Below are positions 50,736 to 56,618 of a DNA stretch of 64,000 nt, piece after piece; positions within the stretch are counted from its first letter, which is position 1, and every line of letters starts with the position of its first letter. The notes below the pieces were generated by a model, which worked only from the letters and a program-made list of their open reading frames with translations, did not search any database and was not told the DNA's origin. A program made the translations under genes and the position numbers. The stretch covers positions 80,089 through 144,088 of the forward strand of contig JAGGTK010000099.1 of the NCBI GenBank assembly GCA_021163765.1, given 5' to 3'. The DNA comes from a bacterium (GTDB lineage Bacteria; 4484-113).

Positions 50736-50744
50736 TGCTATAAT
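50736..50744 (+). promoter_or_regulatory. Extended -10 box TGCTATAAT for the 50772-56618 operon
   Basis: Intergenic, 27 nt before ATG 50772. Confidence 0.5.
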
Positions 50745-50771
50745 GGGCTACCTTCAAAAGGTCACAAACCT

Positions 50772-52139
50772 ATGAAGAATCTCATCAGACTGGCGGCATC
50801 ACTAGTTGTCGTTTTAATTCTTTTGCTCTGCTCAGCGGCCTTCAGCCAGGAATCGGATGTTGAACTGCCTGAAGAGCCGGCTGCTGCTGAAGAAGCCGGG
50901 CCGGAAGCGCTCGAGGGCGCCGACATAATCATCGGCTTGGAGCCAGCCGCAGAAGAAGTTCCTGCGGTCGAGGTGCCGTTGCCCTCGTACGTCACGGTCA
51001 GCGACCTCCCCAACGACGATGGCACGGGCATTGTAGTGGAGTTCGAAAAGGCCGAGGGCGAGACCGAAGCTCTCACTTACACTGTGAGCGTCGGAGCGGG
51101 GCCGGACGGGCCTTGGCAGGAGGTTGGCAGTTTCCCCGCGACGAAAAAGTGGAAGGAGGAGGCCGGTCATTACTATCCGGCGTTTTTCTGGTTCCAGAAA
51201 GGTCGCGCGGGCGTGAGCAATAACATCCACCTGTTCACCATCCAGAATCTGAGTGGCAACGTGCCTTTAGAGACGGGGGTGGAGTACTTCGTCAAGCTCA
51301 CCGCGAGCCTTGACGGTGCCAACCGGGATTACCCGGAGATTCTAAGCGCAACTCCTGAAGAGCAGTGGTTCGATACCGGGCGCACCAATGTGCTTATCCT
51401 CGCAGTGCTGTTCGGTGCGACGGTTCTTTACTTCATCGCCCGTGCGCGGCGCGACCCGAATCTGTTCATTCGCAAGATTAGCGGTCTGGACGCCGTGGAC
51501 GAGGCTATCGGTCGGGCAACCGAGATGGGCAAGCCCATCCTGTACCTGAACGGTATGTCTTCACTTGCCGATCTCAGCACGCTGGCAGCGCTCAATATTC
51601 TCGGCAGGGTCGCGCGGCGGGTGGCCAACTACGAGTCCAAGCTGACCGTCCCGTGCCGCGACCCGATTGTGCTGACTGTGGCCCAGGAGATTGTGAAAGC
51701 CGGCTACACTGATGCTGGGCGTCCGGATGCTTACAATGCGGACGACATATTTTTCTTGACCGAAGACCAGTTCTCGTATGCCGCAGCGGTCTGCGGCATT
51801 ATGATGCGCGACAAGCCGGCGGCCAACTTCTTTATGGGTTACTACTATGCTGAGGCCCTGATATTGACGGAGACCGGCGCGAGCACGGGGGCCATCCAGA
51901 TTGCCGGCACCGACGCGTCCACCCAGCTTCCGTTCTTCGTGACCACCTGCGATTACACGCTCATCGGCGAGGAGCTCTACGCGGCCAGCGCGTATCTCTC
52001 CCGTGAGCCGCTGGTGCTTGGCAGTTTGAAGGGCCAGGACATGGCCAAGGTCTTTATGATGGTTATGATTATTATCGGGACGCTGCTGATGACCTTCGGC
52101 GTCGTCTTTATCAAAGATCTCTTCAAGGCACTGGGGTAG
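50772..52139 (+). CDS. Hypothetical membrane protein: signal peptide, acidic linker, FN3-like ectodomain, TM, ~210-aa cytoplasmic domain, C-terminal TM
   Basis: MKNLIRLAASLVVVLILLLCSAAFSQ signal. TMs NVLILAVLFGATVLYFIA and VFMMVMIIIGTLLMTFGVVFI. No motif I can assign. Confidence 0.6.
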   Translation: MKNLIRLAASLVVVLILLLCSAAFSQESDVELPEEPAAAEEAGPEALEGADIIIGLEPAAEEVPAVEVPLPSYVTVSDLPNDDGTGIVVEFEKAEGETEALTYTVSVGAGPDGPWQEVGSFPATKKWKEEAGHYYPAFFWFQKGRAGVSNNIHLFTIQNLSGNVPLETGVEYFVKLTASLDGANRDYPEILSATPEEQWFDTGRTNVLILAVLFGATVLYFIARARRDPNLFIRKISGLDAVDEAIGRATEMGKPILYLNGMSSLADLSTLAALNILGRVARRVANYESKLTVPCRDPIVLTVAQEIVKAGYTDAGRPDAYNADDIFFLTEDQFSYAAAVCGIMMRDKPAANFFMGYYYAEALILTETGASTGAIQIAGTDASTQLPFFVTTCDYTLIGEELYAASAYLSREPLVLGSLKGQDMAKVFMMVMIIIGTLLMTFGVVFIKDLFKALG

Positions 52140-52142
52140 CAA

Positions 52143-52775
52143 ATGCAGTTTCTCAGGAAGCAATTTCCGGTGATGCTGGCTTTCGTGATGGGCATGGCGA
52201 TGTTCATCAGGGAATTCGTGCCCTCAAAGTTCTCGGAACAGCTGTACTACGGGTTCACCGACTGGGCCATCGTGATTGTCGGATTCTCTGCGGTCTTCGC
52301 AATCCTCTCGCTGCTGCATCACCATATGAACAAGGTGCGCCGGCGTGTGGAGGGTTACGGGTATTCGGTAATCACCATCCTGGCGTTCATCCAGATGATT
52401 ATCCTGGGGCTCATCTTCAGCGTGCGGCCCGGGACGCCTGCCGGATGGGAATACCAGTGGCTGTTCGTTCCGATGCAGGCAACGATGTTCGCCACGCTGG
52501 CGTTCTTCATCGCTTCGGCCGCTTTCCGGGCGTTCCGGGCGCGAACCTGGGAGGCTCTGGCGCTGCTCCTTGCAGGGCTCATCGTAATGATAGGGCGCGT
52601 GCCCATCGGCGAGTTCATCAGCCCCCACTTGAGCACGTTCTCTGATTGGATTATGAACAATCCCAGCATGGCCGGTTTCCGGGGGATAATTCTGGGTGTT
52701 GCCCTTGCCCAGATAGCCATATCGGTGCGCATCATCTTCGGCATTGAGCGCACCTACATGGGAGGTGGCGACTGA
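52143..52775 (+). CDS. Hypothetical polytopic membrane protein (about 5 TM)
   Basis: Starts 3 nt after the upstream stop. Hydrophobic segments throughout. No recognisable family motif. Confidence 0.6.
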   Translation: MQFLRKQFPVMLAFVMGMAMFIREFVPSKFSEQLYYGFTDWAIVIVGFSAVFAILSLLHHHMNKVRRRVEGYGYSVITILAFIQMIILGLIFSVRPGTPAGWEYQWLFVPMQATMFATLAFFIASAAFRAFRARTWEALALLLAGLIVMIGRVPIGEFISPHLSTFSDWIMNNPSMAGFRGIILGVALAQIAISVRIIFGIERTYMGGGD

Positions 52776-53638
52776 TGGAAAAGGTGCAGAAACCAAGTTT
52801 CATCGAGCGCTTTCTTCAGTTGGACCGCCGCATCATCTACACGCTGGTTGCTCTTGCGGTTGCCATACCACTGCTGTTCCCGCTGGGATTGCCCATCAAG
52901 GTTACGCCGGAGGTTCAGAGCGTCTACGATATGATTGAGGACCTCCCCGAAGGATCCAATATTCTTATGAGCGCCGACTTCGACCCCGCTTCAATGCCCG
53001 AGCTCTACCCGATGATGAAATCCGTGATGCGCCACATCATACGGAAGCACCACAAACTGGCCATCACGGTGCTCTGGCCCAACGGCCCCAATCTCGTGGC
53101 CCAGTGCATCGAGGAACTGAAGCAGGAATATCCCGAGTGGACGAACACGGTGGATTACGTCTTCCTGGGCTACCAGGTCGGGGGTGCCATCGTAATTATC
53201 TCAGTTGGAGATAGCTTCTCCGGTACGTTCCCCAAAGATTATTACGGAGAGTCGACTGACGGAATGCCGATTATCAAGGAGTTCAACCAGCTCGGCCAGG
53301 CCGACTATATGGTGATGTTCGAGGCCGGCAACTCCGGCGACTGGTGGATTGTTTACGGCACCGAAGTGCACGATGTGCCGGTTGGCGGCGGCGTCACTGC
53401 GGTTGTGGCGCCGATGTACTACCCGTATCTGCAGGCCAAGCAGCTAAACGGCATCATAGGCGGTCTGAAAGGCGCCGCTGAATACGAGAAGCTGACCGAC
53501 GTGCCTGCGCTGGCAACATCCGCAATGGACTCCCAGTCTATGGTGCACGCCCTGATATTCGTTGCCATTGTGCTTGCCAACATATTTGCGCTAATGCTCG
53601 TGGGTCAGAAGCGTCGTCAGGCGCGGGAGGAGATGTAG
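52775..53638 (+). CDS. Hypothetical bitopic membrane protein with central soluble domain
   Basis: The ATG overlaps the upstream TGA by 1 nt (TGATG). N-terminal TM IIYTLVALAVAIPLLFPLGL and C-terminal TM VHALIFVAIVLANIFALMLV. Confidence 0.6.
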   Translation: MEKVQKPSFIERFLQLDRRIIYTLVALAVAIPLLFPLGLPIKVTPEVQSVYDMIEDLPEGSNILMSADFDPASMPELYPMMKSVMRHIIRKHHKLAITVLWPNGPNLVAQCIEELKQEYPEWTNTVDYVFLGYQVGGAIVIISVGDSFSGTFPKDYYGESTDGMPIIKEFNQLGQADYMVMFEAGNSGDWWIVYGTEVHDVPVGGGVTAVVAPMYYPYLQAKQLNGIIGGLKGAAEYEKLTDVPALATSAMDSQSMVHALIFVAIVLANIFALMLVGQKRRQAREEM

Positions 53639-53640
53639 CC

Positions 53641-54417
53641 GTGACGCACCTAGGAATCATCTTGCTGCAGAATAACGGCTTGCTGCCCTGGCAGGAAGCA
53701 ATGGGCACCTTCTTCACTGAGGGTGGGATGATCGTTGTGGGTACCTGGATTGCCGCAGGCCTGACCCTCTTTATGTTCTCTTTCGTTTACAAGGACAACC
53801 CGTTCTTCCGCTTTGGCGAGCACCTCTATCTGGGCATCTCAGCGGGCTATCTTATGTCCCTGTACTTCTTCAACAACATGAAGCCCAAGTTCTTTTACCC
53901 CCTGATGCCCTTCCTGGACGCCAGCGGCGACAGCACACTGAACCTGTGGGTTATCATACCGGGCATACTTGGATTGTTCATTATCTTCCGGCTGATACCG
54001 GGCTGGGGCTGGCTCTCCCGCATCACCTTCGCTTTCTATATAGGCGGCTTCACCGGCATCTCGTTCCCCAAAGTGCTCAATGGCCTTCTGCTGCCGCAGT
54101 TTTACGCCACGATGCAGTCTATCCCGTGGCAGGTAAATTCACTTGACTCCGCCGTGTTGCTGCTAAACTCGCTCGTTTTATTCGTGGGCGCGCTGTCGGT
54201 GCTCGTGTACTTCTTCTTCTCGATGGAGCACCGGGGGTTTATTGGAGGCGTATCGCGAGTCGGCATCTACACCCTGATGATAGCCTTCGGCGCGTCCTTC
54301 GGCTACACGATTATGGCGCGCATTTCGCTGCTCATCGGCCGCATGCAATTTTTAATGTTCGACTGGATCGGCGACGAAATAGTGGCCCGAATAGGGTCGT
54401 TGTTCCACGGCGGCTAG
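53641..54417 (+). CDS. Hypothetical polytopic membrane protein (about 6-7 TM)
   Basis: GTG start 2 nt after the upstream stop. Hydrophobic throughout. Confidence 0.55.
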   Translation: MTHLGIILLQNNGLLPWQEAMGTFFTEGGMIVVGTWIAAGLTLFMFSFVYKDNPFFRFGEHLYLGISAGYLMSLYFFNNMKPKFFYPLMPFLDASGDSTLNLWVIIPGILGLFIIFRLIPGWGWLSRITFAFYIGGFTGISFPKVLNGLLLPQFYATMQSIPWQVNSLDSAVLLLNSLVLFVGALSVLVYFFFSMEHRGFIGGVSRVGIYTLMIAFGASFGYTIMARISLLIGRMQFLMFDWIGDEIVARIGSLFHGG

Positions 54418-54419
54418 GA

Positions 54420-56618
54420 ATGGCCCAGAGCCGGCCCCTGGCTGCTGCGCGTCCTACGGCGCTGCTGGTTGCCCTGATATTCTTCCTGCTGCTATGCCCG
54501 CTGCCGGCGCGCGCGGCTCCTGGCGGAATCGTGCGCGACGAATGGGGCGTTCCGCACATCACCGCGGACACAATCCCGGAGCTATTCCGCATGCTTGGCT
54601 ACGCCACCGCCGAGGACCGGCTGGTGCAGGTCGACATCTCACGGCGCAAAGCCTGCGGCCAGCTTGCGGAAATAGGCGGCGAAGGATACCTGCGGGGTGA
54701 CATAGAGATGCGCCGGCTGAATCTGCGCAAGCTTGCCGGGCGCGACCTGGCCCGGCTGGCCGAAACCGCTCCTGATGCTCACGCGGCGCTGCTCGCCTAC
54801 GCTCAGGGAATCAATGACTGCGTGGCCGATGAAGGGCTGCCGCCCGAGTACTTCGCGCTGCCGGAGTTCACGCCGTGGCTTCCTGAGGATACGCTGGCAA
54901 TCGCGGCACTGATGCACGTCTACCTTTCCGGCGACCACTACGATGAGCTTGCCAGGCTGCGTGCCCGAAGGCGCGGCGGGGATTGGGCGCTGATGCAGGA
55001 GACGCTTGATGGTCTCGCGGCGCGGCGGGAATGGTGCTCAGCAATCGCTGAACCGTGGGACGGGCTTACGCTGATGTCTGGTTGCGGTGATAGCGGACGG
55101 GTGCTGGGAAGCAACGCCTTCGTGGTTTCGGGGGAGCTCACCGCCAACGGGCGTCCCATTGTCGCAGGCGACCCGCACCTGGACGTGACCTACCCCGGTA
55201 TCTGGTACGAAGTCGCGCTGGAAGTGCCTGGCGAGATGCGTGTGCGCGGGATAACAGTGCCGGGTGCCGCTCTCGTCGCGATGGGCGAGACTGCGAACTA
55301 CTCCTGGGCGCTAACCGCGCTGCAAGCGGACAATGAAGACATCCTCATCGTTCCCAGGGAAAACGTCGTTGCGGTCTTCGGCGGGGAACTCACATCCCGC
55401 GAGGAAACAATCCGCGTCCGCGATGGCCTGGCTGTCCGCGAAGAGAAGGCGACCATCCTTGACTCGCCGCTGGGGCCGGTTGTGGAAGCCGACGAGGACA
55501 GCTACTACATACTCCACTGGGCGGGCTTTTATCCCAACGACGAGGCGCTGGGCTACTTCTCCATCAACTGCGGGAGTTCGCTGGACGACTTCCAGGCGGC
55601 GCTCACAAAGCTCGCAACCCCCTGCAACTTTGTCTATGCGGATGTAAGCGGGAACATCGCCTACTTCGCTGCGGGATTAGTGCCCCGGCGGGATTACGAC
55701 GGGAATGATGCCCGGCTGGTTGCCACGCCGGAGCAGGCGGCGGATTACCACTGGGATTTCGTCCCGATTGAGGAAATGCCGCACGCCGTCAATCCACCTG
55801 AAGGCTTCCTGGTCACCTGCAACAACCCTCCGGCACTGACCGCATGCGGCCGGCCCGTGTTCCCCGGGAACTACGCCCCCGGGTACCGTGCACGGCGCAT
55901 TAGCGAGCTGATACTTGAAGGCGCAAGCGGCAGCAATCTCACATTGGAAGATGTAGCGCGAATACAACTGGACGTTCACTCCAGCTTTGCGGAAGAAGCC
56001 CTGCCTCCGCTCCTGAGCAGGCTTCGCTCACTGGAAGGCGGGATGCCCGGCGCTGAGCGCAAGGCGCTGCAAGTGCTGTCTGGGTGGGACTTCGAAGAAA
56101 ATACGCAATCGCATGGCGCGCCGCTATACGAGCTGATGCGGCGGGAGCTTACGGCATCCCTGCGAACCGCGCATCGCGTATCAGGTCATTATGACATCGC
56201 CCTCCTGGCCGCGCTGCAAGGGGCTGATTGGATATCGCTCAGTGATTCGGAGCTTTCAGCCGCATGGCATGGCGCGGTGGGCAGGGCACTGTCCCACGGC
56301 CGTTCAGGACTGCCGGCATACGGCGAAATCCACCGCCTGCCGCTGGTGAGCCCGCTTCCATTCTACGCCACGCAATCGCCAGGGATGCTGCCGGCGTCGG
56401 GCGGCTACCGCACGGTGAACGTGTCTGCGGTGCGGTGGGATGGCGCTTATTTACTCAAGAGTTTCGGTCCCACCGCGCGCCTGATAATGGCCCCTGGGGC
56501 AACAGGCGCTTACTGGTCGGCGCTTCCGGGCGGAAACAGCGGGCGCCCCAAAAGCCCCAACTGGGCTGACCAGGTGGCTCTATTCCTGGCTGGGGGATAC
56601 AAGTATCGGCGGCGCTGA
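54420..56618 (+). CDS. Penicillin/AHL acylase family Ntn-hydrolase (peptidase S45), secreted
   Basis: Signal ...LLVALIFFLLLCPLPARA. WGVPHI near the N-terminus. Autoprocessing/nucleophile site G-SNAFVVSG followed by GRPIVAGDPHL. The ATG is 2 nt after the upstream stop. Confidence 0.8.
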   Translation: MAQSRPLAAARPTALLVALIFFLLLCPLPARAAPGGIVRDEWGVPHITADTIPELFRMLGYATAEDRLVQVDISRRKACGQLAEIGGEGYLRGDIEMRRLNLRKLAGRDLARLAETAPDAHAALLAYAQGINDCVADEGLPPEYFALPEFTPWLPEDTLAIAALMHVYLSGDHYDELARLRARRRGGDWALMQETLDGLAARREWCSAIAEPWDGLTLMSGCGDSGRVLGSNAFVVSGELTANGRPIVAGDPHLDVTYPGIWYEVALEVPGEMRVRGITVPGAALVAMGETANYSWALTALQADNEDILIVPRENVVAVFGGELTSREETIRVRDGLAVREEKATILDSPLGPVVEADEDSYYILHWAGFYPNDEALGYFSINCGSSLDDFQAALTKLATPCNFVYADVSGNIAYFAAGLVPRRDYDGNDARLVATPEQAADYHWDFVPIEEMPHAVNPPEGFLVTCNNPPALTACGRPVFPGNYAPGYRARRISELILEGASGSNLTLEDVARIQLDVHSSFAEEALPPLLSRLRSLEGGMPGAERKALQVLSGWDFEENTQSHGAPLYELMRRELTASLRTAHRVSGHYDIALLAALQGADWISLSDSELSAAWHGAVGRALSHGRSGLPAYGEIHRLPLVSPLPFYATQSPGMLPASGGYRTVNVSAVRWDGAYLLKSFGPTARLIMAPGATGAYWSALPGGNSGRPKSPNWADQVALFLAGGYKYRRR

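Follow-up and report, generated by a model that had tools for sequence, protein, structure and literature searches.

To begin with, the locus described here lies in a 64,000-nucleotide (nt) stretch of DNA, referred to as the window, that was taken from contig JAGGTK010000099.1 (GenBank assembly GCA_021163765.1, positions 80,089 to 144,088 of the forward strand) of a bacterium of the GTDB lineage Bacteria; 4484-113. Within the window, five tightly packed genes (50772-56618) encode four membrane proteins, designated G1 to G4, and a predicted secreted acylase of the S45 family. On the basis of homology and gene order, the first four genes were identified as one copy of a four-gene cassette defined by the Pfam domain DUF6754 (PF20539), and they are treated below together with the partners that accompany this cassette in other genomes. 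The features of the locus are the following:

50736-50744, + strand: extended -10 promoter box TGCTATAAT, read in the sequence
50772-52139, + strand: G1, the DUF6754 subunit, 455 amino acids (aa)
52143-52775, + strand: G2, 210 aa
52775-53638, + strand: G3, 287 aa
53641-54417, + strand: G4, 258 aa
54420-56618, + strand: S45 acylase precursor (gene 5), 732 aa
56667-57605, + strand: CcdA/DsbD_TM-like polytopic membrane protein (PF02683 at 6.8e-9)

An earlier interpretation made from the sequence alone (the sequence-only reading) had described five plus-strand genes, and all five open reading frames (ORFs) were found at exactly its coordinates. The junctions of 3, -1, 2 and 2 nt that it had given could each be read directly, namely TAG-CAA-ATG between G1 and G2 (3 nt), TGATG between G2 and G3 (1-nt overlap), TAG-CC-GTG between G3 and G4 (2 nt) and TAG-GA-ATG between G4 and the acylase gene (2 nt). 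The extended -10 box, also proposed by that reading, was found at its position, and in the spacer between ftcD and G1, aligned for six genomes of the family, TGnTATAAT was invariant and always equally far from the ATG, the rest of the spacer being only 62% conserved. A sigma-70 scan requiring a -35 hexamer did not list the box at 50736-50744, because no good -35 hexamer accompanies it. Moreover, a small inverted repeat, ACCTTC-AAAGGT (ACCTT-CAA-AAGGT), was observed in the interval that separates the -10 box from the ATG (50745-50771), where it overlaps a Shine-Dalgarno-like AAAGG and is largely conserved in the same six genomes; it could be a hairpin of the 5′ untranslated region or an operator. 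At the other end, the acylase gene and the CcdA-like gene are separated by a 48-nt gap with AAGGAG inside it and no terminator was predicted between them, so that the operon is probably six genes long, with the CcdA/DsbD_TM-like gene as the last one; the gene that comes after it is convergent. Thus, the five tightly packed genes of the operon first proposed were retained, to which a sixth should probably be added.

G1 matched DUF6754 with an E-value of 7.9e-123 and 409 bits against a cut-off of 27, covering profile positions 2-256 of 257, while G2, G3 and G4 had no match in Pfam or NCBIfam. Consequently, the failure of the sequence-only reading to match genes 1-4 to any family was repeated for G2-G4 in these two libraries but not for G1. 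The domain DUF6754 was present in 27 of the 41 related genomes analysed, usually in at least two copies, and was missing from all 14 well-known genomes used as controls. Behind G1, homologues of the other three genes appeared in the same order in 20 out of 20 loci from these relatives, including very distant ones at 24-40% identity. Furthermore, a pattern scan of named genomes detected at least 598 DUF6754 loci, distributed among Nitrospirota, Planctomycetota (Scalindua, Brocadiaceae and Phycisphaerae), Methylomirabilota, Latescibacterota, WOR-3, Poribacteria, Gemmatimonas, Ignavibacteriota, Edwardsbacteria, Stahlbacteria and Eisenbacteria. When 80 loci from named phyla other than that of the window genome were sampled, the order G1-G2-G3-G4 was kept in every complete locus. 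The survey of gene order and co-occurrence suggested by the sequence-only reading was thereby extended to about 100 loci spread over more than 12 phyla, all of them with the same cassette order, often with two to four copies per genome and, in several loci (L049, L076, L082, L085, L094, L096 and L111), with two or three cassettes in tandem.

Regarding the annotation of this family, the relatives of G1 filled at least 8,000 protein clusters, all labelled as hypothetical or ‘DUF6754 domain-containing’, and the domain itself is about 60-65% identical between phyla. No fusion informative on the function of DUF6754 was found in the best 120 of the at least 8,000 clusters, and a literature search yielded nothing relevant on DUF6754, PF20539, PF13941 or the GlmL-like partner described below. 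Overall, no function was assigned to the cassette by the libraries, the solved structures, the fold searches or the literature. The four genes had previously been proposed to form a novel envelope complex; a conserved multi-component membrane module that matches no characterized system was indeed found, although it is not a novelty of the window, given its at least 8,000 clusters and more than 12 phyla. The DUF6754 system was already catalogued in Pfam rather than discovered here and, as far as profile and fold comparisons can tell, it has no detectable relative among the studied membrane machines.

The architecture of the four subunits was then derived from structural models, topology analysis and conserved motifs. 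In the AlphaFold2 model of G1 (predicted local distance difference test, pLDDT, of 76), a signal peptide is followed by a disordered acidic linker (residues 25-61), an FN3-like sandwich (74-193), a transmembrane (TM) helix (202-227), the alpha/beta domain corresponding to DUF6754 (239-410) and a final TM helix (413-441), in agreement with the architecture initially read from the sequence. The ectodomain was matched to FN3 domains by Foldseek with a probability of 1.0 and a root mean square deviation of 3-4 Å, and the alpha/beta domain, predicted to be cytoplasmic by the positive-inside rule, showed weak likeness only to generic SIS/Rossmann folds. Three motifs of G1 are invariant across phyla (GRATEMG, GAIQIAGTD and CDYTLIGEELYAASAY), and one locus of family f1, L016, carries a G1 of 502 aa. 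For G2, the topology analysis gave six TM helices, instead of the approximately five assumed before, with both the N- and C-termini inside; its motifs are a conserved AxRAFRAR in a cytoplasmic loop and a C-terminal GIERxYxGGG. In the case of G3 (pLDDT of 95 and predicted TM-score of 0.88), the model consists of a TM helix, a Rossmann-like alpha/beta sandwich of about 200 aa and a long C-terminal TM helix, so the protein has TM helices at both ends and is not the bitopic one with a soluble domain of about 230 aa that had been described. By the same positive-inside rule, the alpha/beta domain of G3 would be periplasmic and both of its termini cytoplasmic. Its best Foldseek match (E-value of 8.7e-4, TM-score of about 0.33) was to GT-B half-domains and is a generic one, and neither a PDB sequence match nor a match to FMN_bind was found for this subunit. 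Finally, hydropathy gave about six TM helices for G4, in line with the previous estimate of six or seven, with the invariant residues E60, Q153, R227 and R234 and the motifs YFFFSxEHKG and GFGASFGYTVMAR.

Taken together, all four subunits contain motifs that are invariant across phyla, including charged or polar residues in or beside the membrane, whereas the sole invariant cysteine among them is located in G1 and there are no conserved cysteine clusters. Profile searches of the PDB with the alignments of G1, G2, G3 and G4 returned nothing credible for any subunit. Moreover, no significant family, structure or fold match was obtained for G1-G4 among transporter, secretion and motor families (ABC, ECF, TRAP, MFS, RND, Sec, T2SS/T4P and MotAB/ExbBD), and when each protein in the G2 and G4 alignments was scanned at E <= 1, nothing but scattered hydrophobic noise came up (such as DUF373, 7TMR-DISM and DUF3704). 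Two possible relationships within the cassette were also considered and found no support, since paralogy between G2 and G4 obtained a profile-profile probability of 5%, and homology between the G1 domain and G3 one of 1.8%, despite the equal order of helices and strands in the models of the latter pair.

The partners of the cassette were searched for by clustering all the ORFs of the approximately 100 loci. A co-directional trio, c7-c5-c4, immediately precedes G1 in about 40 loci belonging to at least six phyla (Nitrospirota, Planctomycetota, Methylomirabilota, Ignavibacteriota, Eisenbacteria and the phylum of the window genome). Of these three proteins, c7 is about 110-150 aa long and had no family match. 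The c5 protein (about 600-660 aa) matched the Pfam MutL model at 2.8e-129 over 450/450 positions and is as conserved between phyla as the DUF6754 domain; a representative c5 remained below the NCBIfam cut-offs for GlmL (NF040745, 230.9 vs. 475 bits), for the GlmL-related ornithine-degradation protein Or-4 (216 vs. 600 bits) and for the GlmL subfamily (TIGR01319, 164.6 vs. 204 bits). The c4 protein (about 375 aa) comprises a barrel-sandwich-hybrid part, a Rossmann-like part and a KOW-like tail. Its N-terminus gave sub-threshold matches (e.g. 21.6 bits against a cut-off of 25.6) to RnfC_N in 13 out of 18 members (best 1.3e-6) and to NQRA_N in 5 out of 18, and the matches of its barrel hybrid also reached biotin/lipoyl, HlyD and M23 domains. 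A long GlmL-like gene appeared in 26 of the 27 DUF6754-positive relatives, always as a single copy, compared to two to four cassettes per genome. Among the DUF6754-negative genomes, a GlmL-like gene was present only in one that is 62% complete, and another one harboured a canonical GlmL of 463 aa.

The genome from which the window was taken also encodes this module:

contig C17:30793-34364: ATPase module, with c7, c5, an inserted membrane protein and c4

The c5 protein of this module has 620 aa and intact motifs of the ASKHA (acetate and sugar kinases, Hsc70 and actin) superfamily (DCGSTTTK, VDIGGATTD and GSGGVLSH), while c4 is cut at residue ~172 by the end of the contig. The protein inserted between c5 and c4 is a polytopic membrane protein of 235 aa with a proline-rich tail, also found in relatives of the phylum (L117:4144-4980) and not seen in the other phyla examined. 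Judging by its co-occurrence with and position next to the cassette, the GlmL-like module, a putative ASKHA ATPase, is the core conserved partner of the cassette, and not the acylase. This partner was invisible to the sequence-only reading because it is encoded on another contig of the genome.

The relationship between the several cassettes was addressed by means of a DUF6754 tree. The G1 of the window fell in a clade with the c4-adjacent cassettes of families f2 and f3, with a support of 97 in the Shimodaira–Hasegawa-like approximate likelihood-ratio test; therefore, the window holds the primary (ATPase-adjacent) cassette, relocated beside ftcD in family f1, where the acylase and CcdA-like genes behind it would share its single extended -10 promoter. 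A separate clade (support of 99) joined the second cassette of the genome with the second cassettes of f3. According to this topology, both paralogues are placed before the radiation of the phylum. The second copy is the following:

contig C6:11191-14616 (L013:4012-7740): second G1-G4 cassette, 37-47% identical to that of the window

A 1087-aa surface protein with IPT/TIG domains is encoded two genes upstream of this second cassette, with an unassigned 193-aa gene in between, and a TruB pseudouridine synthase is located downstream. In addition, an extra gene of 296-309 aa was observed in f3 directly upstream of the G1 of the second cassette (L025:12097-12987 in genome G023 and L028:3209-4138 in genome G019), holding only a very divergent DUF6754 domain (Pfam 1.5e-53) with a long branch at the base of the tree.

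As for gene 5, it matched PF01804 over its full length (3e-144, 483 bits against a cut-off of 21.3), and the signal peptide, the nucleophile Gly230-Ser231-Asn (GSNAF) and beta-His23 (GDPH) were all identified, with the beta chains of solved acylases aligning from S231 onward. The former assignment to the S45 N-terminal nucleophile hydrolases with an intact G-SN site was therefore correct, and on these sequence features the membership of this family is solid. The gene is predicted to encode a secreted precursor made of alpha chain, spacer and beta chain, which as a member of this family would mature autoproteolytically to an alpha/beta heterodimer with amidase activity. In the PDB, the closest match of the acylase was to D-succinylase 7eby (3.3e-35), followed by the glutaryl-7-ACA/cephalosporin acylases (about 1e-25), penicillin G acylase (about 1e-22) and PvdQ (about 1e-6). 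Moreover, the PvdQ equivalog model (NCBIfam NF051460) gave 46.3 bits against a cut-off of 950. These values do not support the framing in terms of N-acyl-homoserine lactones, lipopeptides and PvdQ that had been put forward; judging from the nearest solved relatives, which are only 25-30% identical, a substrate with a short or dicarboxylic N-acyl group would be at least as likely. Tandem S45 acylases of 745 and 811 aa were also observed in an unrelated lineage (L121:3699-8436; GCA_977927215.1, CDWRBG010000028.1), where they adjoin ribosomal protein L31 and an M23 peptidase, with no DUF6754 cassette nearby.

The linkage between the acylase and the cassette was followed in 24 genomes of the phylum, a small candidate phylum, representing four families. 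An S45 acylase was found in 11 of them, and in 10 of these 11 a copy was located immediately behind G4 (G000, G001, G005, G006, G007, G019, G020, G021, G022 and G023), while in the remaining one (G003) the acylase and the cassette sit at the ends of contigs, a position compatible with their being adjacent. This arrangement is kept between f1 and f3 even though the acylases share 28-31% identity, compared to 47-68% for the cassette proteins. In family f3 the whole string c7-c5-(TM)-c4-G1-G2-G3-G4-acylase is co-directional, and in family f1 the ATPase module is found by itself (L117 and L118), with the CcdA-like gene following the acylase. What looked like an in-frame TAG codon in the acylases of f3 is simply their natural stop.

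Considering the above, the DUF6754 cassettes may serve as exchangeable membrane units, each specific to its substrate, within a modular primary transporter. The ASKHA module that they share would energize or gate them by docking on the cytoplasmic domain of G1, while the periplasmic domain of G3 and the ectodomain of G1 would handle the substrate outside the membrane. In the phylum of the window genome, the secreted acylase would strip an N-acyl group, probably short or dicarboxylic, from an N-acylated amine or amino acid of the environment, and the primary cassette would then import one of the products; in most lineages the cassette would work without an acylase. The different parts of this proposal deserve different degrees of confidence. 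It is highly probable, on structural and evolutionary grounds, that the cassette constitutes an inner-membrane unit of four subunits that exposes domains on either side, present as several paralogues and served by one shared ATPase module. A function in transport, inferred from architecture and modularity alone, is a real possibility that we would place somewhat below an even chance, and the uptake of an acylase product by the primary cassette is doubtful. The complete package, that is, a modular ATP-dependent transporter with an acylase-fed primary cassette, is thus put forward tentatively.

Several observations weigh against this proposal. Neither in sequence nor in fold does any subunit resemble a transporter, channel or solute-binding protein already known. 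When the Pfam domains of 86 co-directional neighbouring genes were tallied, the result was heterogeneous and revealed no dominant substrate-related context; it included two GcvP_C matches and one SBP_bac_5 match, together with T2SSE ATPases and TPR proteins in a few loci. Furthermore, a 100% complete genome of another phylum (G039) had three cassettes and a stand-alone c4 (C33:12985-14103; L124:3983-5104) and no GlmL-like gene, so the ATPase is not strictly required wherever the cassette occurs and the coupling to c5 is not universal. The lack of a dominant neighbour context and this genome without the ATPase therefore call for caution on the transporter model. Regarding the acylase, it was absent from family f2 (10 genomes) and cleanly deleted in G002, a genome of the same genus where the CcdA-like gene comes immediately after G4. 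It was found beside the cassette in none of the 80 loci sampled outside the phylum, and four relatives with about 30% identity, located on long contigs of other lineages, had no DUF6754 nearby. Since the CcdA-like gene was kept in G002 after the deletion of the acylase, its link to the cassette in f1 is independent of the latter. On this distribution, the acylase is best described as a lineage-specific accessory of the primary cassette and not as a core component. As to the idea that it works with genes 1-4, their linkage is conserved in other genomes of the phylum (10 adjacent and 1 split between contigs out of 11), but a core partnership is not supported (0/80 elsewhere). A further accessory was seen in Nitrospirota, in which about 25 loci (e.g. 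L048:13199-14446) consistently carry a Memo/AmmeMemoRadiSam-B-like protein of about 415 aa behind G4 on the same strand; like the acylase, this Memo-like gene of Nitrospira is an accessory of the primary cassette that is specific to its lineage.

Other explanations were weighed against the modular transporter. The one that survives best, albeit unlikely, is that the cassette and the ASKHA module form a platform for the export or assembly of an envelope component (protein, lipoprotein, glycan or lipid), with the ATPase as a scaffold similar to PilM or GspL in the platforms of type IV pili and type II secretion, and the acylase maturing or recycling an acylated molecule of the envelope or secreted outside. 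Actin-fold proteins are the cytoplasmic scaffolds of known envelope machines, and such a platform would be in keeping with the domains of the complex on both sides of the membrane, the variable, adhesin-like G1 ectodomains of the FN3 type, the T2SSE ATPases and TPR proteins near a few loci and the 1087-aa TIG-domain surface protein two genes upstream of the second cassette. However, nothing in the system resembles PilM, PilN, PilO, GspL or another component of secretion machines, no secretin, pilin or substrate gene is consistently linked, and the many paralogous cassettes per ATPase fit substrate-specific units, as assumed in the transporter model, better.

It is quite improbable that the cassette forms a bioenergetic complex that translocates ions or is coupled to redox reactions, loosely similar to Rnf/Nqr, in which c4 would correspond to RnfC/NqrA and the acylase would be only a co-regulated neighbour. 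Although the sub-threshold matches of the c4 N-terminus were recurrent (RnfC_N in 13/18 members and NQRA_N in 5/18), those of its barrel are shared with biotin/lipoyl, HlyD and M23 domains, thus indicating a common fold and not family membership. The sizes and topologies of the subunits recall RnfA, RnfE and RnfG, but G2 and G4 remained unmatched to the Rnf-Nqr family even at E <= 1, G3 had no FMN_bind match and, with a single invariant cysteine in G1, there are no conserved cysteine clusters for Fe-S centres. Likewise, the cross-phylum identity of about 60-65% of the DUF6754 domain and c5, and the presence of the system in the chemolithotrophs Nitrospira, anammox bacteria and Methylomirabilis, would suit such a complex, for which several paralogous cassettes per genome would nevertheless be unusual. 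Very unlikely, too, is a sensor, which the sequence-only reading had also suggested, or a signal-transducing receptor, beside which the acylase is a neutral hitch-hiker of the operon with no common substrate: G1 does combine a variable extracytoplasmic domain on a flexible linker with a conserved cytoplasmic domain, and the acylase is dispensable (lost in G002, family f2 and all other phyla sampled), but no output domain of the kinase, cyclase, HAMP, PAS or DNA-binding kind occurs in the cassette or in its conserved partners, four stoichiometric membrane subunits whose polar residues within the membrane are invariant suggest a machine rather than a receptor, and chance is a poor explanation for an adjacency that survives divergence to about 30% identity in three families.

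The modular transporter remained the preferred reading, and the system was finally compared with those already known. Its layout is analogous to that of Rnf and Na+-NQR in having a peripheral subunit with a barrel hybrid, two subunits of about six TM helices and one membrane-anchored subunit with a periplasmic domain; however, the matches of c4 are sub-threshold and common to the hybrid-barrel clan, and there are no Rnf-Nqr, FMN_bind or Fe-S signatures. A functional analogy can also be drawn with group II ECF transporters, which combine a shared energizing module with interchangeable membrane S-components, as here one ATPase module per genome is accompanied by several dispersed paralogous membrane cassettes. 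In contrast to them, no relation in sequence or fold was detected, the ATPase has an actin fold instead of that of ABC proteins, and the membrane part is a four-subunit unit with domains on both faces. With GlmL/MutL, the accessory protein of the coenzyme-B12-dependent glutamate mutase, c5 shares the MutL model and the phosphate-1, phosphate-2 and adenosine motifs of the ASKHA superfamily, but it is about 150 aa longer, falls below all the NCBIfam cut-offs and never appeared beside the mutase in the loci examined, its neighbours being c7, c4 and the cassette.

In comparison with other S45 enzymes, the acylase has the standard precursor layout but only about 25-30% identity to any solved member, and it is translationally coupled to G4 (2-nt gap); to our knowledge, translational coupling to a membrane complex has not been reported for the studied S45 enzymes. 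On a wider scale, the system consists of seven proteins with about 60% identity across phyla and occurs in thousands of species, among them the nitrifier Nitrospira, anammox bacteria, Methylomirabilis, Poribacteria and members of many candidate phyla. Should it prove to be a transporter or an energy-coupling device driven by an actin-fold ATPase, a new class would be added to a short list. That it represents a new class of primary-active transporters, with an ATPase of the actin/sugar-kinase fold and not of the ABC, P-type or rotary kinds, together with a ‘deacylate-then-import’ scavenging pathway in the phylum, is rather unlikely at present; if it were so, defining what the acylase acts on would also give the first substrate for these transporters as a class. 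Compared to the DUF6754 cassettes found elsewhere, the copy in the window has the same G1-G4 order but is detached from c7-c5-c4, which adjoins the orthologous cassette in the sister families, and the S45 acylase and the CcdA-like gene downstream of it were seen only in this phylum. The contribution of the window is thus a lineage in which the primary cassette is tied to a secreted enzyme with assayable chemistry, from which a testable hypothesis on the substrate can be drawn.

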